From the IMG/VR virus record IMGVR_UViG_3300014208_000006, positions 1,557-65,556 of that record: DNA of 64,000 bases. One strand, 5' to 3'. The stretch's first letter is position 1. Every line of letters starts with the position of its first letter. The notes under the pieces were generated by a model, which saw nothing but the letters and a program-made list of their open reading frames with translations, did not search any database and was not told the DNA's origin. Of the stretch, positions 3,549 to 52,519 are shown piece after piece. This stretch comes from a virus. Lineage: Duplodnaviria > Caudoviricetes. Both the position numbers and the translations under genes were made by a program.

Positions 3549-4709
3549 TTAGGCGGCGGCGCCGGCCTTGGCAGCCATGTCGAACACCGTCCAAGTATCA
3601 GCCGCCGTGCAGACGCAGATGACGCCCTTGCTAGCCGCAATCGCGCAACCGGCATCGGCGACTCCGCCGTTGATCGTGCCACCGGCCGCGGCGAACAGGT
3701 TGCAGGCCGTGCCGGACGTGTTGATGATCTGGATGACCTGCCCGGCAACGCCCGTCAGGAGCTTGACGCCCTTGGTGGCGCCGTCGGAACTGACCAGTGC
3801 GAAGTTGACCGCACCGATAGCCGCGGCACCCGCAACACCGCCACCCGCGCCAGTGGCAGCAACCGGAGTCGCCACGAGGCTCGAGCGTTGCACCCCGGAG
3901 ATGATCGGGCTGGCGAGGGTCTTGTTGGAAAGCGTCTGGGCGAGGGTGATGAACGCATACGTGTCGTTTACGTTCGCGAAGTCGGGGATCGTCAGGGTAG
4001 CCGTGCCGACGGTCTGCGCGGCCATGGATTCGGTCACGAGATAGGCGGAGGCATCGGCCACCGTGCGCTTGAGCCCGCCAGAGGTCTTGCCGAGCACCTG
4101 AACATAGCCGGTATTGGTCTTGCCGGTTGCCGTCGAGACAAACGGGGTGGCAGCATCAGCGGTGACTGATCCGAGTGTCGCGGCGCCATCGGCGTCGAGC
4201 GTGCCGGTGACAGAGGCATTGCCGCCTACCGTCAAGTCGTTCGTCACCGCCAGCGAGTCAGCCGATGCGCCAGGATAGAACGCCTTCCAGCCGATCGCCG
4301 CGCTAATGTAGCGCAGAACCACGCGGCCGTATTCGGTCGAGAGCGTCAGGTCGGACGTGCCGGAGTTGATCTTGAGACCATTGCGTCCCGCCGTGACGTT
4401 GTTGGTGTCCCATGTGCCGGCGGGATCGAAAAGCTCGATTTCATCACCAGCCTCGGCGACGGCCGGGAGCGTGATGGTCAGCGCGCCCGCGGTCGTGTTG
4501 ACGCCGAGGATGTCGCCGGAAACAGCCGTGTAGGCCGCGGCCTTGAGCACGAAACCGCCGTTGTCAGCGACGAGCTCGCCATCGGCATTGAACTTGAGGA
4601 CGCCGTTGACGAGTTTCGGCAAGTAGCGAATGGCGTCGAAACGCCGAATGAGGGTCTTGAGGACGAGGGCGCCCATTGACGATCTCTTGGAGAGTGCGGA
4701 TGTTGACAT
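3549..4709 (-). CDS. Tail fibre/virion appendage protein
   Basis: AYTAVSGDILGVNTTAGALTITLPA..GDEI..D..GTW..NNVT..RNG.KING repeat typical of phage fibre proteins. Confidence 0.6.
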   Translation of the reverse strand: MSTSALSKRSSMGALVLKTLIRRFDAIRYLPKLVNGVLKFNADGELVADNGGFVLKAAAYTAVSGDILGVNTTAGALTITLPAVAEAGDEIELFDPAGTWDTNNVTAGRNGLKINSGTSDLTLSTEYGRVVLRYISAAIGWKAFYPGASADSLAVTNDLTVGGNASVTGTLDADGAATLGSVTADAATPFVSTATGKTNTGYVQVLGKTSGGLKRTVADASAYLVTESMAAQTVGTATLTIPDFANVNDTYAFITLAQTLSNKTLASPIISGVQRSSLVATPVAATGAGGGVAGAAAIGAVNFALVSSDGATKGVKLLTGVAGQVIQIINTSGTACNLFAAAGGTINGGVADAGCAIAASKGVICVCTAADTWTVFDMAAKAGAAA

Positions 4710-28900: not shown

Positions 28901-29200
28901 CCTGCGTCTTCGGGCAGGAGCGGGGACAGAATCGGCGGGCGCGTCAGCATGCCCTCCTTGTCTGTTCGCAGTTCTGCCAAGTCAACAATAAATGGAACGT
29001 GAGGCCGGAAGGAAGCGAAGCGGGTTACAAAGCCTGAATTGTGAATAAGCTCGACATGACCTGTAAAAACCTCCTTTAGAATCCTCCGAAAGCAAAGTGT
29101 TGATGAAAGTAACCGGGTCACAACATTTCAACTCATACGTTCTCCGGGGAGGCGGGAGACGAGGGAACGGGGTGATGAAGTGAGCGATGTGGCGACGAAG

Positions 29201-29227
29201 TGAGCGTGTGAGCGTGTGAGCGTGTGA
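29201..29227. repeat. 8-bp tandem repeat
   Basis: (TGAGCGTG)x3 TGA in the divergent intergenic region. Confidence 0.8.
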
Positions 29228-29518
29228 TTCTGCCTCTGGGCGTGACTGGGCGCGGCCTGATCGTGTGGCGCGTGATTCTCGGGGAAAGCTGCGGCGAAAC
29301 GTCGAATATCGAGCGCCAGAGGGTGTTAAAAGTGGTGAATCTGGGCGGAAAGTGAAGATTTCTGGGAATGCGGAAGGATGTGGGGATGTGATGATTGTGA
29401 ACGCTGAATGGCGGTTGTTCGCTGTGCTGCTTATTTCGTGCTTGCAGTATATAAGAACGCGGGGCAGGTTTGTTGTCAGACGGGGCAATCACGCCCGGTC
29501 GAAACAAGGAACGACGAA

Positions 29519-29890
29519 ATGAAACTCTTGGCCAACAATGTGACAGTCACCCCAGCGTTCGGAGCGTTTTTCGTGGAGGCGCGCTGTATCTCGAAAGGAG
29601 GCGACGCGACGCTTCAAAGCCGCAATGATTACCGCTCGATCGCCGATGCGTGGGTTGCCGTGCTGAAAATCTACGCCGCTGGCAACATGATCGACGAGGC
29701 GGAATTCGTGTGCCTCACATCGCGTGAACTGAGCGAAGAGCAGGCGGAGGTTTTCCACGGACCTCTCACGGATGCCCAGCATGAGCGCCAATGCCGGATT
29801 GCAGACATGGCGGACGAACAGGGCGGCGGGTATGTCAACCGGGCGCGCGAGATTCACGGCGAACGCTATATTGAAAGGGAGAGCGAGTGA
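29519..29890 (+). CDS. Early hypothetical protein
   Basis: CAAGGA RBS then MKLLANN. Confidence 0.65.
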   Translation: MKLLANNVTVTPAFGAFFVEARCISKGGDATLQSRNDYRSIADAWVAVLKIYAAGNMIDEAEFVCLTSRELSEEQAEVFHGPLTDAQHERQCRIADMADEQGGGYVNRAREIHGERYIERESE

Positions 29891-29971
29891 ATGTTGTTCC
29901 CCGCTTCTCGGCGCGAGCCGGGCGGCGGTGATCTGCAATCACGCAGAACTCAACTCAACAAGGAGACGACA

Positions 29972-31003
29972 ATGACGACGACGAAACAGGGCAGCGAACA
30001 TCAACGCGACAGGCTTGCCCACGAGTTCACGCGCATCTTGCGGGACGAATGGCTTGGCGCCCACAACTGGGCCGAGATGGTGAAGGCGAACGCGGCGGAG
30101 ACGGAAATCGGCATCTGCCACTCGCATGACTACTGCGACGCGAACATGGCGATGCTCGAAGCCTTCAAGATCGTGCACGGGCGCGAGTGCGAGACGAACG
30201 ATGATGCCGACGCGCTGCTCTGGACGGACGCATGGAACGAGGCCAAGCGCATCTGGCAGGCTGGACCGACGCCCACGCCCACGCCCACAGGCCGCACGGA
30301 TGCCGAGATTGCGACGGTGCGCGAAGCGTGCGCGTATGCGGTCGAGTGCCTGAACGCGCTGGGCTTTGTGGCGACGCACGAGCATCAGGACACGATCAAC
30401 TGGCCGCTGGCGGATGGTCGGCGCAATCTGATGGCCGGCACGGTTGACGGCGTGTGGGGCTATGACGTGGTGGAGTCGCACGGTGATGTGCTGGCGGATG
30501 AGGGGGCCGACAAATACGCCCTGCCCCTGTGCGCAACGGGCCCGATGGTGGCCAAGTGGCTTTACGAGGCGTGGCAGCGGCTGAATGCGGCGGCGGTGAT
30601 GAGCCTTGCCCAGCTTTGCACACAGTATCGCTTCCACGAGACGGACACGGGCGGCGGCTGCACGGCGCTCAAGCAGGAGGGCGAAGTCTTCCATTGGCTG
30701 CTGACGGAGACGGATGACCCGAGCGCGCCGGACGTGGTTGGCGCGCAGTGCTGCCTGTCTCTCTACCGCAACGATCAGGACCACAGTGACGCGCAGGTGA
30801 CGTTCATCTGCCCGGACGTGGAGAGCGCGATGAAGATGGCCGGCTGGTTCGAGGAGTCGCAGTCGAACGCGGGCAACGCCTCGCAGGGCATCGCCATGCA
30901 GGCGGCAAGCAAGCTCGTCGCTTTCGCGAATCGCAACACGCGCATCAACCTGACGGGCGACTTGGCCGAGGCCGTGAGGCTGGCGCGGCTGACGGTTGGC
31001 TGA
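29972..31003 (+). CDS. Early mosaic multi-domain hypothetical protein
   Basis: AAGGAG RBS; CHSHDYCDANM, PT linker, TGGGCTAL modules. Confidence 0.7.
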   Translation: MTTTKQGSEHQRDRLAHEFTRILRDEWLGAHNWAEMVKANAAETEIGICHSHDYCDANMAMLEAFKIVHGRECETNDDADALLWTDAWNEAKRIWQAGPTPTPTPTGRTDAEIATVREACAYAVECLNALGFVATHEHQDTINWPLADGRRNLMAGTVDGVWGYDVVESHGDVLADEGADKYALPLCATGPMVAKWLYEAWQRLNAAAVMSLAQLCTQYRFHETDTGGGCTALKQEGEVFHWLLTETDDPSAPDVVGAQCCLSLYRNDQDHSDAQVTFICPDVESAMKMAGWFEESQSNAGNASQGIAMQAASKLVAFANRNTRINLTGDLAEAVRLARLTVG

Positions 31004-31059
31004 AGTCGAAACGGCCCTCGTGCCGTCGGGCGGATTGGCATGCCGTCCCTGATGAGACT
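31004..31059 (+). ncRNA. Hammerhead ribozyme, type II
   Basis: AGTC-GAAA-CGGC(cctcgt)GCCG-TC|-GGGCGG(attggcatg)CCGTCC-CTGATGA-GACT; predicted cleavage after C31027. Confidence 0.9.
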
Positions 31060-31088
31060 GCCACAACCAACAACAAAGGAAAACGACG

Positions 31089-31625
31089 ATGAAACTGACA
31101 AGCGATGAACTGAAGCAGGCGCGTGAATGGCTGAAAGACTGCCAATGGCGAGACCTTGAGGCCGGAGACGTTGACGACATGCCTGACGAGACCGTTGAAC
31201 GTGGCGTCGCCAAGCACTACGATGGGGGGCTCGCCGAATTCAGGAAGAACTGCTCTCACCGCGCGCAGCCGGTTGCTGCGCATACGCCAGCAATCGAAAT
31301 TTATACCCACGCCCTTGGGGCGTCCGTCATCGAAAGAACGGGCCATTACAGCAAGGTCATCCAAGACTTCCGTTCGCTTGAGGAGGCGAACGCATTTGTT
31401 CTTGGTTATCGAATGGCCGGGCAAACCCGCGCCTGCAACTCGCACGCGGCGCTGGTCGAGGCGCTGGCCCTGCTTGTCTCGTTCGATGACAAACAGGGCA
31501 TGGCCGACCATATCCGCGAACGCTCCGGCAACAACGAGGACGCGCAGACCCCGGAAGAAACAATTTACCTGCACGGCATGTCGGCAGCCCGCGCCGCCCT
31601 CGCGCTCGCCAAGGAGGCCCCATGA
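31089..31625 (+). CDS. Early hypothetical protein
   Basis: AAAGGA RBS; AREWLKDCQW..ERGVAKHYDGG. Confidence 0.7.
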   Translation: MKLTSDELKQAREWLKDCQWRDLEAGDVDDMPDETVERGVAKHYDGGLAEFRKNCSHRAQPVAAHTPAIEIYTHALGASVIERTGHYSKVIQDFRSLEEANAFVLGYRMAGQTRACNSHAALVEALALLVSFDDKQGMADHIRERSGNNEDAQTPEETIYLHGMSAARAALALAKEAP

Positions 31626-31882
31626 GCGCCACCCTCGCCTTCTCCGTCGCATGGGACACCCGGCACGCGCGCGCAACGGCCACCACTCCCATCAACGGCC
31701 AGCACTACCGCATTTCCCGCGAATGGGGGACGGCCTTGGTGCAGTGCCTGAATTCGCGCCTTGCCCAATTCCGGGTGATCGAGCACTCCCCGGCCCCGGG
31801 CTTCGAGGACCTGACGGGCTGGCTCGTTCACCTTAACGCCGACCTGCAGGCGAGTCTGCGGGCCTGCCCTGCCCCGCTGTGA
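31622..31882 (+). CDS. Early hypothetical protein
   Basis: ATGA overlap. Confidence 0.6.
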   Translation: MSATLAFSVAWDTRHARATATTPINGQHYRISREWGTALVQCLNSRLAQFRVIEHSPAPGFEDLTGWLVHLNADLQASLRACPAPL

Positions 31883-31983
31883 GCACCCCGAAGGCCAAGG
31901 CCAAGCGGCTGGGGATCCTCGCACTGGAGGGCTTGTTCCTCGTCGGGCTGGCCCTCTGCGGGCTTCTCATGCTGGCCCTTTGA
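31879..31983 (+). CDS. 34-aa membrane peptide
   Basis: GTGA overlap; STPKAKAKRLGILALEGLFLVGLALCGLLMLAL. Confidence 0.5.
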   Translation: MSTPKAKAKRLGILALEGLFLVGLALCGLLMLAL

Positions 31984-31988
31984 TTCTC

Positions 31989-32052
31989 GTCGAAACCCGG
32001 GCGCCTGTGGCTCGGGTCTGCGGGCAGGTGGCTCCTCCCGCACTGAAGAGAC
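31989..32052 (+). ncRNA. Hammerhead ribozyme, type II
   Basis: GTC-GAAA-CCCGGGC(gcctgtg)GCTCGGG-TC|-TGCGGG(caggtggctcct)CCCGCA-CTGAAGA-GAC; predicted cleavage after C32018. Confidence 0.88.
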
Positions 32053-32083
32053 AAGCCAACTCAACCAACAAGGACATCACCAC

Positions 32084-33436
32084 ATGAATACGACGACAAC
32101 CACCACCACAACGACAACGCTCAAGAAATGGGAAGCCGGTCAGGGACTCGGCCCCCGCATGCTCAAGCAGTTCAACGACGCCATCAACAAGGCTTCCTTC
32201 AACGCGCGCGGCGTCTGCACGCTCACCGGCATCATCGGCAAGCCCGAGACGGAATCAGGCCGGGATTGCGTCATGGTCTCGCTGTTCGGCGGATCCTCGA
32301 ATCCCGCCTACGAGCCCAAGCTGGCGGAAATCCAGGCGAAGCACGGCAGCATCGTGACCGCAGCCAACTACAAGGGGCTGGTCGATGACCTGCTCGCGCT
32401 GGCCTCGTGGCTGCATCATAACCCCATCATCAAGGACGAGCGCGTGACGCAGGAGGCGCATGACGCCAAGGAGGCCAATTACGCGCAGGCGATGGCCGAG
32501 CGTAAGCGCAAGGACGAGGAGCACGATGCGGCCAAGGCCATCATCGCGGGCGAACTGCGGGCGAAATACCCGTGGGCGGTTGGCCGGCGCTCCGGCGAGA
32601 ACCTGAAAACTCTGCTGGGCCAGACCTTCCCCGGGATCGTCTTCTCGGTCCGCTCGGACTCGAACTCCCTGACGGTCTCATGGGAGAATGGCCCGGCTGA
32701 TGGCGAGGTCTCCAATATCGGGGACCAGTTCCGCGCCGGCCGCTTCGACGGCATGACGGACGGCTATGACTACGACAACAGCGCGCGGACGCGGGCTTGG
32801 TCGGAAGTCATGGGAACGGTGCGCTATGTGTCCTACAATCGCGCGGTCGATCGCCAGCCGGTCATTGACGGCCTGAAGGCCAGCATCACCGATTGGGACG
32901 CCGACGGCCATCACTCCGTTTCGCAGGTCGCCTATCGCCTCATCGGCAAGTCCAGCTTCCCGGCTGGCGCGGTCCTGACGGGAGTGGAACGGCTGCCCGG
33001 CGACGGCTGCGGCCAGATGGAAGACTGGTTCAAGATCACCTACACCACCCCCGGGCCCTCTTATTCCGCTCCTGCCCCCGCCCCGGTCACGAACTCCGCC
33101 GGCATCACCGTTTCGCGCAACATCGAGAAAGGCGGCGTCGAGATCCGGTTCCCGAGCAAACCCGAGGCCAGCATGATCGAGCGCGTGAAGTCGCAGGGCT
33201 TCCGCTGGTCACGCTTCTCTGGCTGCTGGTGGGCCAAGGCGACGGACGGCAAGGTTGCCTTCGCCTACAGCCTGGCGGGGCAGGAAGCGCCCAAGAACGG
33301 GCAGGAACAGGCCAATTCCGAGCAGTCCGAGCAGGTTCGGGACCCGGGCGAGGACGCGGCGGACCGTCATTCCGAGGCCATGGGCGCCGAGGAGGTCACG
33401 GAACGCCTCATGGAAATGGACGCCTTCACCCGCTGA
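32084..33436 (+). CDS. Polyvalent-protein-associated (LPD29-like) protein
   Basis: LK..L..TFPG..FSVRS..WENGP..F.GMTDGYDY (LPD29-like) plus C-terminal EIRFPSKP..GFRW domain. Confidence 0.7.
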   Translation: MNTTTTTTTTTTLKKWEAGQGLGPRMLKQFNDAINKASFNARGVCTLTGIIGKPETESGRDCVMVSLFGGSSNPAYEPKLAEIQAKHGSIVTAANYKGLVDDLLALASWLHHNPIIKDERVTQEAHDAKEANYAQAMAERKRKDEEHDAAKAIIAGELRAKYPWAVGRRSGENLKTLLGQTFPGIVFSVRSDSNSLTVSWENGPADGEVSNIGDQFRAGRFDGMTDGYDYDNSARTRAWSEVMGTVRYVSYNRAVDRQPVIDGLKASITDWDADGHHSVSQVAYRLIGKSSFPAGAVLTGVERLPGDGCGQMEDWFKITYTTPGPSYSAPAPAPVTNSAGITVSRNIEKGGVEIRFPSKPEASMIERVKSQGFRWSRFSGCWWAKATDGKVAFAYSLAGQEAPKNGQEQANSEQSEQVRDPGEDAADRHSEAMGAEEVTERLMEMDAFTR

Positions 33437-33438
33437 CA

Positions 33439-33489
33439 GGCCGAAACCCCTTCGGGGGTCTGCTGGTAGCTGCCAGCACTGACGAGGCC
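33439..33489 (+). ncRNA. Hammerhead ribozyme, type II
   Basis: GGCC-GAAA-CCCC(ttcg)GGGG-TC|-TGCTGG(tagctg)CCAGCA-CTGACGA-GGCC; predicted cleavage after C33460. Confidence 0.9.
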
Positions 33490-33527
33490 AGACGACTCGA
33501 ATCCAACAAGAAAGGACGACACCCACC

Positions 33528-33926
33528 ATGCCCGCACCCAAAACACCCGCCCAAACAATCGGCCCATGGCTGAAAGCCAACGGCATGCACCTTGGCGGAC
33601 TCACCGGCCAAGACTGGCCCGCCCTCAAGGCTGCCGCTGAGATCATGGGACTCTACGCCAAGTGTGATCAGCGCGCCGAGACTCACGTCCTGTCCGCTTT
33701 CGCCGGCGTGGTCATGGCGATGCAGCCCAGCATGCGGCATCTGGCCTATCATGCCATTGCTCACGCTCTGGACTGGCACAACCGCGCCGAGCTTTGGCAT
33801 CGCGCCGGCCTGCCGCGTCTGGAGCACATTCCGCGCTGCTTGAATGGCCCGGCAACGGAAGTTCTCAACCAAACCCTGAACGCCGAGATCGAGAAGCGTG
33901 ACAGCAACCCCCCGTTCTCGCCATGA
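33528..33926 (+). CDS. Early hypothetical protein
   Basis: AAAGGA RBS; 132 aa. Confidence 0.65.
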   Translation: MPAPKTPAQTIGPWLKANGMHLGGLTGQDWPALKAAAEIMGLYAKCDQRAETHVLSAFAGVVMAMQPSMRHLAYHAIAHALDWHNRAELWHRAGLPRLEHIPRCLNGPATEVLNQTLNAEIEKRDSNPPFSP

Positions 33927-34312
33927 ACCGCGGACTACTCCTCTACCACTCCGGCGCCGTCAACGCCTGCCTGGACCTGTTCGAGCTGCGCGTGTGGGAA
34001 TCCGGCGTGCCGCATCCGACCGTGCCAAAGGTTGCGCCCAAAGCCGAGGACGCGATCCGCTCCTTCAACCCCCACGCGCAAAACATCACTTGGTTGTCCG
34101 GTCCTGCCGCAACTCGCAAACTCGCCAAGGCGGTCGGCCTCGAGTTCCGCAAGCGCGCTCCTGGCGGCGGCCGCAAGAAGGCGGAACCCGGTCACAAGGT
34201 CGTTTACGTGCCGGTCTGGATGACGCCGGCCGGGCTCATTCGCCTGGACTTCCTGCGCGGCAAGCGAGCTCGCGGCGCGTTCATCGAGGCGCACCTTGCG
34301 CTGATGAAATAA
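33923..34312 (+). CDS. Early hypothetical protein (possible DNA-binding C-terminus)
   Basis: RAPGGGRKK..V.VPVWMTP..SRGAFIE, RHH-like end. Confidence 0.6.
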   Translation: MNRGLLLYHSGAVNACLDLFELRVWESGVPHPTVPKVAPKAEDAIRSFNPHAQNITWLSGPAATRKLAKAVGLEFRKRAPGGGRKKAEPGHKVVYVPVWMTPAGLIRLDFLRGKRARGAFIEAHLALMK

Positions 34313-34337
34313 CACTTGGGCCAAGTCAGATGCTACA

Positions 34338-34370
34338 AAGCCCCGTTGGCCTCGTGCTGGCGGGGCTTTC
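34338..34370. terminator. Bidirectional intrinsic terminator
   Basis: AAAGCCCCG-15nt-CGGGGCTTT between convergent units. Confidence 0.7.
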
Positions 34371-46965: not shown

Positions 46966-48336
46966 TCAGGCGAGCGTGAACTCGTTGGGCTTGGCGGTCT
47001 CGGGCTTGGCGTGCGCGTCGTGCGAGAGGACGTTTTCGGCGGGGGCCTCGGCTTTACCCGCAACCTCGCCGTTCTCGATGATGATCGAGCAGGCGTCATC
47101 CTTTCCGACGCGCTCAACGAACACCTGCAGATTGTGCTCGGCGGCGAGTTCGGCCAGAAGCGTCATGCTTTTCGCGTCCAGCAGTGAGCCGTCGCGGACG
47201 ATCATCACACGGAGCTTCGGATTGAGCGCGGCCGACATTGCGACGGAGATGCGCAGTTGCTGGGCGCCGGAAGCCTGGGCGAAGGGGATGCCCTGATAGG
47301 TCACGCCGTTCTCGTCAAAGCTGAGGCCAGCGATCGGGAACTTGGCAGAGGAGAGCACCGACTCCTTGTTCTTGTCGATGGCCTCGATCTTGAGCGTGAG
47401 GTCCGCGGCCTTGGCCTGATGGCCCTTGAGTGCGGTAATGGCGTCCTCGCGGAGCGTGTTCTCGTGAACCTGCTTGTTGGTCACGGCGGCGCCGGCCAGC
47501 TTGGCGCGGATCGGGGCCTCGTCGGTGGGCTTGAACTCGTAATCGGCGGCAATGGCTGCGTCGTGTTCTGCGGCAACCGCCTTTTCCATGGCTTCCTGCG
47601 GGGCGATCATTTCGCGCGTCTGGCGAAGACGCTCCTCTAGGTCCAAAATCTCGCGGCGAATCATGGCGGTCTTCTGCCGTTGGTCTTTCAACGAGGACGC
47701 CTTGGCGCTGATCTTCTCCGTAAGGTCGTGCTTGGTCGCATTATGCTTCTGCGCCGCCTCAAGTTCGGCCATCACGTCCGCCGTGCTAACCTCGAAAGCG
47801 GGGGCGTCCTTGTGAAACGGCATCTGTTCAACGCGAGCGGAGACCTGCGCGACGGTCCGGTTGACGAGGGTGCGCTCATCATAGAGGGCCTTGCGGCTGC
47901 TGTCCTGCGCGCTGAAGTCGATGCCGACCAGCTTGCGGAGCGCCGCGGCCTGCTTGGTCGCGTCCAGGCGGGTGAAGGCCAGCGGGTCGAACATGAGCTT
48001 GCCGGTCAGCGCGTCCAGCATGGCCTGCGGACTGGGGTAGCGGGCGCCGTCCTTGTTCTCCACGACGAGGGCCGTGCCGCCGGCTGCCGTAAAGGTCCGC
48101 TTGATGATCAGGCCGTTGTCGAGTTCGGCGATGATCTTGGCGTTCTTCTGGCCCTTGCGGACGGGCATCACCGGGATCTCGTCGCCGCCGCCGAAAGCCA
48201 TGGCGATGGAGTCGAGCACGGAGGTTTTGCCTGCCGCATTGTCGCCAGCGATGACGACGACGTTGCCCTGCGGGGTGATGGTGACGGCGGTCAAACGCTT
48301 GATGTTCTCGGCCTGTAATGCGATGATCTTGGTCAT
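46966..48336 (-). CDS. SMC/RecN-like ABC-type ATPase
   Basis: L.AENIKR, GDNAAGKTSVLD, coiled coil, SGAQ signature, IVRDGSLLD. Confidence 0.85.
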   Translation of the reverse strand: MTKIIALQAENIKRLTAVTITPQGNVVVIAGDNAAGKTSVLDSIAMAFGGGDEIPVMPVRKGQKNAKIIAELDNGLIIKRTFTAAGGTALVVENKDGARYPSPQAMLDALTGKLMFDPLAFTRLDATKQAAALRKLVGIDFSAQDSSRKALYDERTLVNRTVAQVSARVEQMPFHKDAPAFEVSTADVMAELEAAQKHNATKHDLTEKISAKASSLKDQRQKTAMIRREILDLEERLRQTREMIAPQEAMEKAVAAEHDAAIAADYEFKPTDEAPIRAKLAGAAVTNKQVHENTLREDAITALKGHQAKAADLTLKIEAIDKNKESVLSSAKFPIAGLSFDENGVTYQGIPFAQASGAQQLRISVAMSAALNPKLRVMIVRDGSLLDAKSMTLLAELAAEHNLQVFVERVGKDDACSIIIENGEVAGKAEAPAENVLSHDAHAKPETAKPNEFTLA

Positions 48337-51085: not shown

Positions 51086-51244
51086 AGCAAAACTGGCAAC
51101 ACATAGCGCCACACTTAGGAGCGCCACGGGCTATCACCCTAAACGGTGTTCGCTATATAGCGCTATACGCTTTTCGGTTTGCAATGTTCTTGCCTAAGTG
51201 ACGTTTTGAGGATTTGCCTAAGTTTTGCCCAAGGAGACGACGAT

Positions 51245-52519
51245 ATGCACGATGAATCCACCCAGTTCCTGACCCGAAATCTCAGCGTGTCCGTGTGGCG
51301 CGCACCCTTCGCCGACAAGACCGGCGCACAGTGCTGGGGCAATCAGTGGTATTGCCGGAAGATGGTCGCCGGGAAGTCCGTCCGGTTCCCGCTCGGCACC
51401 AATAAGCGCACCGCCGAGAAGCTGGCCGAAGAGATTACCGCGTTCCTGTCGATCCCGACCAACACCCTCGACATGGCGTTGGCGAAATACAACCCGCGCC
51501 GCGCCGCGCGCAACAACCACGTCGCGACGTTCACGGACATTGTGACCACTTACGAGAGCGCGCTGGGCATCATCGGCCGGAAGGGCAAGCCGGTCAGCGC
51601 GTCCAGCTTCAAGGGCTACAAATCGTTTCTGGCGTCCCTGCTCCGCAAGGTGGAGTCCTACCGGACCGGCAAGCCATTCGTGTCCTTCTTCGGAAAGAGC
51701 AACGTCGATTACTCGCCCTGGTTCGATCAGCCGACCGACATCCTTACGACGAAGTTCGCGATGGACTTCAAACTGGCGTCGATCCCGCAGGACGACGATG
51801 CCGACGAGGACGACATCCTGACGGCCAAGATCACCGCGGACACGACACTGCGCAATGCCCGCGCCTTCTTCTCCAAGATGGCTGTGCGCTACTACAAGGA
51901 GGTTGGGCTGAAGCTGCCGGACCTGAGCGGCTTCATGTCCGAGCCGGATTTCGGGGCGAAGCGCTACTTTGAGCTGCTTCCGGCTGAAGTGATCGTTGCC
52001 GTGATGCGCGCCTCGATCGAACTCAGGATTGCCGACGTGGACACCTACCGGGCGTTCCTGCTCTGCATGCACTGCGGGTTCCGCCGGGCCGAGGCAATCG
52101 CGTTCAAGCCCCATTGGCTCCGGCAGGACGACCGGCCCATGATTCACATTGTCGCCGGCGGAGACTTCAAGCCGAAGCACGGGCACAGCCGCAAGATCGT
52201 CATCGAGCAATGGGTGTTCGACCTGCTCAAGGAGCTCGGACCGGTGAAGGACACGGCATCGCTCGACAGGCTGAACGAATGGATGAAGGACTTGATCCCC
52301 GCGGAGTTTGCGGTCAGCAAGGCCGTGCATGAGATGCGCAAGCTCTTCATCAGCTTCAAGGCCAAGACCGAGGGCATCCATGCCGCGGCGAACCAGGCCG
52401 GGCATCGCGACGTGAAGGTGACGACTCAACACTATGCCGATTCGATGATGAGCGAGCGCCTACTTCCGCTCTGGAAGCAGCCGACGGAATCTGCTATCTT
52501 ACAATTCAAAATCGCATGA
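51245..52519 (+). CDS. int: Tyrosine integrase
   Basis: CGFRRAEA (R), KPKHG (K), HEMRK (HxxR), AGH..VTTQHY (H, Y). Confidence 0.9.
   Translation: MHDESTQFLTRNLSVSVWRAPFADKTGAQCWGNQWYCRKMVAGKSVRFPLGTNKRTAEKLAEEITAFLSIPTNTLDMALAKYNPRRAARNNHVATFTDIVTTYESALGIIGRKGKPVSASSFKGYKSFLASLLRKVESYRTGKPFVSFFGKSNVDYSPWFDQPTDILTTKFAMDFKLASIPQDDDADEDDILTAKITADTTLRNARAFFSKMAVRYYKEVGLKLPDLSGFMSEPDFGAKRYFELLPAEVIVAVMRASIELRIADVDTYRAFLLCMHCGFRRAEAIAFKPHWLRQDDRPMIHIVAGGDFKPKHGHSRKIVIEQWVFDLLKELGPVKDTASLDRLNEWMKDLIPAEFAVSKAVHEMRKLFISFKAKTEGIHAAANQAGHRDVKVTTQHYADSMMSERLLPLWKQPTESAILQFKIA

Follow-up and report, generated by a model that had tools for sequence, protein, structure and literature searches.

Each of the three real gaps in a plus-strand gene cluster of a complete temperate phage genome carries a type II hammerhead ribozyme with an intact catalytic core, and the related copies in other phages preserve these structures through compensatory changes in their stems. 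We consider it very probable (about 0.85) that positions 29519-34312 form one transcription unit and that the hammerheads in its three gaps would self-cleave after C17. The operon transcript would then probably be cut into four messages. All positions refer to the window, i.e. the whole stretch of 64,000 nt that was analysed.

Results

The phage and its plus-strand operon

The source phage is tailed and temperate, and its complete 65.5 kb genome contains portal, terminase, capsid protein and integrase genes; the DTR of the IMG/VR record do not define the physical genome ends. Assignment to the N4-like phages, suggested by an ORF of 3147 aa, was dropped, since this ORF resembles internal-virion and polyvalent families and an integrase is present. 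The plus-strand unit (29519-34312) contains eight genes, g1-g8, which are separated by only three non-overlapping gaps with one hammerhead (HH1, HH2 or HH3) in each. The features are as follows.

29436..29518, + strand: promoter-like block and 5' leader (CTTGCA, 18 nt, CAGGTT, a leader containing GGCAAT, and an AAGGA Shine-Dalgarno site)
29519-29890, + strand: g1, ORF of 123 aa
29891-31003, + strand: g2, ORF of 370 aa; the g1 stop abuts the g2 start (TGAATG)
31004-31059 (entry 31004..31064), + strand: HH1, type II hammerhead, core CUGAUGA, predicted cut after C31027
31089..31983, + strand: g3 (178 aa), g4 (86 aa, ATGA overlap) and g5
31879-31983, + strand: g5, 34-aa hydrophobic peptide, GTGA overlap
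31989-32052 (entry 31989..32058), + strand: HH2, type II hammerhead, core CUGAAGA, predicted cut after C32018
32084..33436, + strand: g6, 450 aa, with an LPD29 domain at residues 173-253 (PF18847, 1.9e-12)
33439-33489 (entry 33439..33501), + strand: HH3, compact type II hammerhead, core CUGACGA, predicted cut after C33460
33528..34312, + strand: g7 (132 aa) and g8 (129 aa, ATGA overlap), the last genes of the unit
34337..34369, + strand: hairpin AAAGCCCCG ... CGGGGCUUU, read from the sequence, where the unit meets convergent minus-strand genes

The block at 29436..29518 was missed by a simple sigma-70 scan and can be aligned with the sequence 5' of the first plus-strand gene in three related loci (L034, L036 and L038); it may represent the promoter and leader of the operon. 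Together with the gene arrangement it points to co-transcription of g1-g8. The hairpin at 34337..34369 is absent from the terminator-scan list and is likely the transcript end of the unit.

Sequence searches of Pfam, PHROGs, NCBIfam and PDB gave no function for seven of the eight genes (g1-g5, g7 and g8). The N-terminal part of g2 resembles phrog_21393, whose function is unknown in PHROGs, and homologues of the g1-g2 block were found in L033, in L039 and as gene 57 of Rhodobacter phage RcSimone-Hastad. For the g3-g5 block, the sole family match was a weak one to phrog_24475, and a 34-aa gene is also called at the g5 position in L030 and L039. Homologues of g8 are present in L033, L037 and L039. 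Homologues of g6 range from 97 to 30% identity, and over its C-terminal 37 aa this protein shares 38% identity with residues 1396-1432 of the 3147-aa ORF, which suggests that a small C-terminal domain is common to g6 and the giant virion protein of the phage. The function of LPD29 was called "elusive" by the describers of the domain. The first-pass annotation had regarded the operon as early and directed against the host; an early timing is suggested only by the divergent control region, and the LPD29 domain is the only functional hint towards an anti-host role.

Structure and placement of the three hammerheads

The three type II motifs with full cores that had been proposed from the first reading of the sequence were recovered to the base, and the GUC triplets end exactly at the predicted sites 31027, 32018 and 33460. 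All three share the strand order of stem II 3' strand, GAAA, stem III hairpin, UC, stem I hairpin, CUGANGA and stem II 5' strand; loops close stems I and III, and stem II opens to the flanks, as in the type II permutation. The core is complete in each (C3-U4-G5-A6-N7-G8-A9, G12-A13-A14, the A15.1-U16.1 pair, and H17 = C), and the pairs adjacent to it are all standard: 10.1-11.1 is G-C in 3/3, 1.1-2.1 is G-C, U-A and U-A in HH1, HH2 and HH3, and 15.1-16.1 is A-U.

In HH1, stems II, III and I have 4, 4 and 6 bp, and a 5-bp pseudoknot can form between UGGCA (31036-31040) and UGCCA (31059-63). HH2 has a stem II of 3 bp, a stem III of 7 bp and a stem I of 6 bp with a 12-nt loop, and its 5-bp pseudoknot joins UGGCU (32029-33) with AGCCA (32054-58). 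HH3 combines a GGCC/GGCC stem II with a 4-bp stem III closed by a UUCG loop, a 7-bp stem I and a conserved 3' tail (AGACGACUCGAA); no pseudoknot of at least 4 bp between loop I and the tail was found, so HH3 may be slow at physiological Mg2+. By fold prediction, the hammerhead is the minimum-free-energy fold for HH1 and lies within 0.2 kcal/mol of it for HH3; the minimum-free-energy fold of HH2 lacks the 3-bp stem II.

The hammerheads are spread across 2.5 kb, and all are intergenic and on the coding strand. They had been placed 0-5 nt after a stop codon and about 30-40 nt before the next start; in agreement, HH1, HH2 and HH3 begin 0, 5 and 2 nt past the TGA codons at 31001-03, 31981-83 and 33434-36, and the motif ends lie 29, 31 and 38 nt from the next ATG (31089, 32084 and 33528). 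With stem II as the open helix, the predicted cuts fall 24-35 nt 3' of the upstream stop codon. The location in the intergenic spacers of one plus-strand unit also supports the earlier proposal for processing, in that cuts there would divide the transcript with no need for host RNases.

Detection and chance expectation

The motifs were compared with the Rfam type II family RF02276, and a full-length match (model positions 1-66) was obtained for all three. This check had been suggested beforehand; the scores were 31.4 bits for HH1, 30 for HH2 and 30 for HH3, under the gathering score of 37 bits, which is a curation cut-off and no structural feature. The three were thus recovered by the Rfam scan only under E-value thresholds, with E of 0.002-0.005 in a 7 kb scan against all families and of 5e-6 to 1e-5 when only this family was run against the full 65.5 kb genome. 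At gathering thresholds, the Rfam scan of the window returned one tRNA and nothing else, and at E up to 5 it returned no other ribozyme of any Rfam family. A strict hammerhead descriptor run on both strands of the 64 kb matched HH1, HH2 and HH3 and no others; the chance expectation from 200 first-order Markov random sequences was a mean of 0.015 matches per 64 kb (Poisson probability of three or more, ~6e-7).

Conservation and covariation in relatives

The main set of relatives consisted of loci found via the LPD29 gene (g6). Hammerheads occur at matching junctions in L030/31, L033, L034, L036, L037, L039 and L081, and four orthologous copies exceed the RF02276 gathering score. The positional orthologues of HH1, at L039:3870 (50.3 bits) and L037:3875 (39 bits), are both above the Rfam threshold; their stem sequences differ and complementarity is retained. 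The same applies to the orthologues of HH2 at L037:4909 (40.8 bits), L039:5907 (37.1) and L033:2659 (32.1), whose stems differ yet remain complementary with the loop/tail pairing kept. The loop I/tail pseudoknot is retained in every HH1- and HH2-type copy.

In the HH3 group, which comprises eight orthologues and paralogues, compensatory changes affect 5 of the 7 stem I pairs. The formal pair count was limited to the 13 pairs of this group, since the MAFFT alignments were inconsistent with the structure in stem III and the pseudoknot; 100% of cells were paired, the score was reached by 0/500 shuffles, and slid controls were 24-46% paired. The remaining copies were tabulated by hammerhead numbering. 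The covariation that the first-pass annotation had read from the three copies in the window needs rewording: their stems do differ, but the difference among these three is no strict covariation, while orthologous copies do covary. The 11 invariant core nucleotides are intact in HH1-HH3 and in 16 related copies, with freely variable stems, a pattern expected only under selection for catalysis.

The HH3-type tail AGAMGACUCGAA is also conserved while the stems vary, and a search of the core and of loops I and III gave no covarying partner for it. The compact, pseudoknot-free subtype of HH3 is present in at least 120 IMG/VR stretches, and about half of these hammerheads have a GUCAG tail complementary to the core CUGAC.

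The cultured relative RcSimone-Hastad, which grows on R. capsulatus SB1003, has two unannotated type II hammerheads in a homologous gene cluster, one scoring 38.3 bits against RF02276, above the gathering score. Their predicted cuts follow L204:4251 and L204:4534, equivalent to positions 47801 and 47518 of MW677525.1 on the complementary strand. More distant LPD29 loci (248 kb, L040-L080; 41 loci from a search with a 9-sequence alignment, used because a 19-sequence g6 alignment was too divergent as a query) contained no credible hammerhead, so these genes do not require the ribozymes. Among 20 loci that have the N-terminal domain of g2 in common, none had an Rfam match at the gathering score, and the descriptor matched in L005 and L025 only. 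No match was obtained in a search of viral contigs with the single g6 protein or in the genome-contig scan of the g6 homologue search.

Plain hairpins at the same junctions

In some relatives, a long imperfect plain hairpin of ~20 bp occupies the same gene junction instead of a hammerhead (L032:212-262 and L034:516-566). These hairpins are unrelated to the hammerheads and are followed by the same C/A-rich leader. Replacement elements are located at L032:209-303, L034:509-606, L034:1307-1388, L081:962-1058 and L038:4374-4466. Rfam gave nothing at the replacement hairpin, and an exact-pattern search of viral contigs gave no match. Ribozymes and host-RNase (RNase III-type) sites might be interchangeable cassettes for which selection acts on the cutting between cistrons itself, or the replacement element might itself be an undescribed self-cleaving RNA; we regard both ideas as quite doubtful. 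Either would be new if true, and cassette exchange would provide a direct natural test of the purpose of bacterial and phage hammerheads.

Discussion

The sequences show the motifs, their placement and their conservation with compensatory changes, and from there we infer co-transcription, cleavage and an effect on stability. A transcript of ~4.9 kb would give four mRNAs, encoding g1-g2, g3-g4-g5, g6 (LPD29) alone, and g7-g8; the two internal products would span 31028-32018 (991 nt) and 32019-33460 (1442 nt). Hammerheads cut to give one product with a 2',3'-cyclic phosphate and one with a 5'-OH. The mRNA upstream of each cut would retain its stop codon and have the stem III hairpin, with the cyclic phosphate, as its 3' end. 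The mRNA downstream of the cut would carry the 5'-OH at the foot of the stem I hairpin; the core, by then spent, comes next, and after it an unstructured leader rich in C and A and the ribosome-binding site AAGGA. As a likely gain, the segments would decay and be translated separately, with no dependence on one another or on host RNase E or RNase III.

The alternative that survives best, although we regard it as unlikely, is that the ribozymes are real and cleave conditionally, with a ribosome at the stop codon or a competing fold of the 3' tail delaying or gating the cut; how much RNA stays polycistronic relative to the processed form would then depend on translation or physiology. Gating of folding by terminating ribosomes had been raised in the first-pass annotation and is speculation, and the abutment of stop codon and stem II, 0-5 nt here, is conserved in relatives (0-4 nt in nearly all orthologues). 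The weak stem II and competing minimum-free-energy fold of HH2, the lack in HH3 of the pseudoknot that confers fast cleavage, the constant tail of HH3 and the frequent GUCAG tail would all suit such control. However, the packing of stop codon and ribozyme may be mere genome compaction, no covarying tail partner was found, and the prophage triples tested previously cleaved efficiently during transcription (PMC3088659). Many hammerheads without the loop I/tail contact are also on record (Perreault et al., PMC3088659).

It is very unlikely that the motifs are catalytically dead or irrelevant, in which case they would only shield 3' ends as hairpins between cistrons or offer sites to host RNases, and the core would persist by descent: plain hairpins at the same junctions and Rfam scores under threshold agree with this, but the invariant core nucleotides are intact in 3 + 16 copies amid changing stems. 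More improbable still is that the g3-g5 and g6 segments, each with a hammerhead on either side, are joined into circular or spliced RNAs, either by the ribozymes or by a ligase of the RtcB type; the ends produced by cleavage suit RtcB, but the sequence shows no feature, for example complementarity between segment termini, that would bring these ends together. Perreault et al. raised this possibility and sought such products, and none was found (PMC3088659). Chance matches in GC-rich DNA, to which the sub-threshold scores might be ascribed, are refuted by three matches against 0.015 expected, all intergenic and on the coding strand, and by the covariation among orthologues.

We thus favour self-cleavage of one transcript, for which there are both natural and engineered parallels. 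In the early polycistronic mRNA of T7, RNase III cuts between cistrons and leaves message-stabilising 3' hairpins; relatives of the present phage likewise have ~20 bp hairpins at these junctions. In T7 a host enzyme cuts and leaves a 5'-monophosphate, whereas here the RNA would cut itself and leave a 5'-OH. RiboJ, an engineered insulator based on a satellite-RNA hammerhead, likewise self-cleaves 5' of a ribosome-binding site, so that the message starts at a fixed 5'-OH end with a hairpin and its expression is uncoupled from the upstream sequence; the present elements occur naturally, in intercistronic positions.

Hammerhead clusters that flank phage genes have been known since 2011; one is a triple with demonstrated activity that surrounds ardA (Perreault et al., PMC3088659). 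The elements of RF02276 (PMC3088659) have the same core, the same permutation with an open stem II and the same phage intergenic context. HH1 and HH2 share their loop I/3'-tail pseudoknot (UGGC with GCCA), as in the Rfam consensus, whereas HH3 is a compact form in which stem II is invariably GGCC, loop I is small and the pseudoknot is lacking; all three score below that family's gathering score. The ardA triple of Agrobacterium tumefaciens likewise places three hammerheads of type II in ~2.5 kb of a single polycistronic unit, where they flank single genes or short blocks of variable identity (Perreault 2011, Figs 3, S2, S3). A triple arrangement of this kind cleaved in vitro and in E. coli (Perreault 2011, PMC3088659). 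In both clusters, one of the flanked genes comes from the repertoire that mobile elements use for establishment or anti-restriction, ardA in A. tumefaciens and LPD29 here. The genes otherwise differ, and activity is demonstrated for the A. tumefaciens triple, whereas the present hammerheads are known from sequence. Unlike that triple, the present one lies in a complete genome, and the ribozymes are therefore seen to occupy every real gap of the unit.

In conclusion, the arrangement was already known in phages, and the present operon is a clean example of it and no discovery; knowledge of hammerheads is unchanged. Its worth lies in the complete genome, with a ribozyme in every real operon gap and covariation in orthologues. 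What the hammerhead class does biologically has yet to be established (Weinberg et al. 2019, PMC6765202). Since the cultured RcSimone-Hastad carries hammerheads in a homologous cluster, their function can be tested genetically on R. capsulatus SB1003, which is the practical value of the finding.

Results

The first-pass annotation had claimed three complete type II hammerheads on the plus strand of the window. The claim was borne out by the sequence itself, by matches to RF02276 (the Rfam type II hammerhead family) and by a strict descriptor.

Type II hammerheads of the window
31004-31059, plus strand, HH1, cut predicted after C31027
31989-32052, plus strand, HH2, cut predicted after C32018
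33439-33489, plus strand, HH3, cut predicted after C33460

All invariant core positions are intact and the core-adjacent pairs are standard, with stem II open and stems I and III capped. HH1-HH3 were not detected in the window by the Rfam scan at the gathering threshold (37 bits for RF02276). When the proposed Rfam check was run at E-value thresholds, all three gave end-to-end RF02276 matches (31.4, 30 and 30 bits), and nothing else in the window resembled any Rfam ribozyme family. The strict descriptor was purpose-written and run on both window strands and on 200 Markov-random sequences. It matched exactly HH1-HH3 and no other site in the window, while its chance rate was 0.015 per 64 kb; three matches, all intergenic and on the coding strand, are far beyond chance. 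The predicted minimum-free-energy fold of HH1 is the hammerhead secondary structure, the hammerhead fold of HH3 lies within 0.2 kcal/mol of the predicted minimum, and the 3-bp stem II of HH2 is absent from its predicted minimum-free-energy fold.

The hammerheads lie in a plus-strand island of eight genes (29519-34312), with minus-strand genes divergent on one side and convergent on the other.

Order of the plus-strand unit
g1, plus strand, 123 aa, first gene of the unit
g2, plus strand, 370 aa, between g1 and HH1
g3 (178 aa), g4 (86 aa) and g5 (34-aa hydrophobic peptide), plus strand, between HH1 and HH2
g6, plus strand, 450 aa with an LPD29 domain, between HH2 and HH3
g7 (132 aa) and g8 (129 aa), plus strand, after HH3

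All junctions without a ribozyme abut or overlap (TGAATG, ATGA, GTGA, ATGA), thus HH1-HH3 occupy every real gap of the unit. A C/A-rich leader with an AAGGA ribosome-binding site comes after every one of the three. The 80 bp 5' of g1 can be aligned with the first-gene upstream regions of three relatives and include a promoter-like pair, CTTGCR-N17/18-yAGGTT; a generic promoter scan found nothing on the plus strand of the unit. Since this upstream block is shared and a hairpin (34337-34369) closes the unit, the simplest reading is a single inferred transcript of about 4.9 kb. The divergent control region upstream (29180-29285) carries GTGAGCG repeats at 29180 and 29200-29223, the latter comprising three tandem GTGAGCGT units, together with two GTGATTCT copies; these repeats and copies may be operators or iterons.

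The operon had also been called early and its genes anti-host, and neither description is supported. LPD29 in g6 is the one domain recognised in the eight genes; its describers placed it among the elusive-function domains that polyvalent proteins carry in phages and conjugative elements. The phage's own giant virion protein shares the C-terminal 37 aa of g6, which fits this polyvalent-protein vocabulary and proves nothing on timing. A small domain, VEIRF..KP....K..GFRW, occurs at g6 residues 352-388 (33137-33247) and at residues 1396-1432 of the giant virion/polyvalent protein (8989-18432, minus strand); its matches are phrog_19458, phrog_6744 and, weakly, ribosomal protein uS11 in the PDB (E 0.006).

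The window covers bases 1557-65556 of a 65,556-bp IMG/VR virus record that has direct terminal repeats and is rated complete. Its gene content is that of a tailed phage, with an SU10-type portal, HNH endonucleases, capsid protein, DNA methylases, SbcC-like ATPase, terminase, a 3147-aa internal-virion/polyvalent-type protein and a tyrosine integrase (51179-52516); the phage is therefore probably temperate. The open 3147-aa frame (8989-18432, minus strand) contains a tRNA-Met (CAT) in its 5' part (17694-17768, minus strand, 58.4 bits), so the true start of the giant protein is probably downstream of this tRNA.

The contigs of g6 homologues (97-43% identity) were traced. Equivalent junctions carry hammerheads in L030/31, L033, L034/35, L036, L037, L039 (within a 247-kb NCBI contig) and L081, and four of these hammerheads score above the Rfam threshold (50.3, 40.8, 39 and 37.1 bits). 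Gene content between ribozymes varies from relative to relative. More distant LPD29 loci had no hammerheads. In the HH3 group (n = 8 sequences) the 13 pairs counted are 100% paired, and both sides have changed in 5 of the 7 stem I pairs; the covariation score was reached by 0 of 500 shuffles, and slid controls were 24-46% paired. Stems I and III vary among HH1- and HH2-type copies, all of which keep a 4-6 bp pairing of loop I (UGGC) with the 3' tail (GCCA), the pseudoknot required for fast cleavage (Perreault et al. 2011, PMC3088659). Extra hammerheads lie at junctions absent from the window phage (L039:4496-4550; L081:190-250), the latter a core-adjacent variant with an additional A between core A9 and stem II.

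HH3-type copies form a compact subtype that lacks the pseudoknot. Its stem II is GGCC without exception, U-G and G-C close its small loop I, and its 3' tail, AGAMGACUCGAA, is conserved; a search for a partner of this tail found none. The subtype is widespread, at least 120 IMG/VR stretches matching the exact pattern. Among the matches listed, 80 loci were fetched (L084-L163), six with two hammerheads and four with three by the strict descriptor. About half of their 74 distinct compact hammerheads have a 3' tail starting GUCAG, the exact complement of core CUGAC, and this pairing may form a post-cleavage or off-state hairpin; most of the others carry a AGnnGnCUCGAA-like tail, as in HH3.

Where relatives lack a hammerhead at a junction that has one in the window phage, the junction carries a long imperfect hairpin lacking a U-tract, followed by the same C/A-rich leader.

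Replacement hairpins
L032:209-303, about 21 bp
L034:509-606, about 21 bp
L034:1307-1388
L081:962-1058
L038:4374-4466, z = -5.1

They are unrelated to the hammerheads (about 13-21 bp, z-scores -1.6 to -5.1) and matched no Rfam family. Processing sites of the RNase III type are one possible identity, and an RNA element not yet described is another.

Discussion

Type II hammerheads and their pseudoknot have been described, with cleavage both in vitro and in E. coli for the triple that surrounds ardA in A. tumefaciens, and the proposed role was to process long phage transcripts (Perreault et al. 2011, PMC3088659); a 2019 review still called their purpose unresolved (PMC6765202).

For the window phage, the best-supported reading is co- or post-transcriptional self-cleavage that would yield four mRNAs. 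In the type II permutation the cut would fall 24-35 nt beyond the stop codon, so the upstream message would retain its stop and have the stem III hairpin, bearing a cyclic phosphate, as its 3' end, and the 5'-OH of the downstream message would lie at the base of the hairpin formed by stem I. In E. coli, 5'-OH ends evade 5'-monophosphate-stimulated RNase E attack. In relatives, too, the stop codon abuts stem II; ribosome gating of hammerhead folding is a speculation.

Two type II hammerheads are present in a cultured relative, Rhodobacter phage RcSimone-Hastad (MW677525.1), which therefore provides an available experimental system. They follow immediately on the stop codons of genes 60 and 59 (L204:4229-4284 and 4510-4568), and one scores 38.3 bits, above the Rfam threshold. 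No hammerhead is among the 25 features listed for this stretch of MW677525.1. The same hammerhead sequences are found in L025, a locus that shares the N-terminal domain of g2.

The replacement hairpins recall the phage T7 early transcript, which carries RNase III sites. Such replacement of hammerheads by hairpins would be expected if the selected function is intercistronic processing or 3'-hairpin formation.
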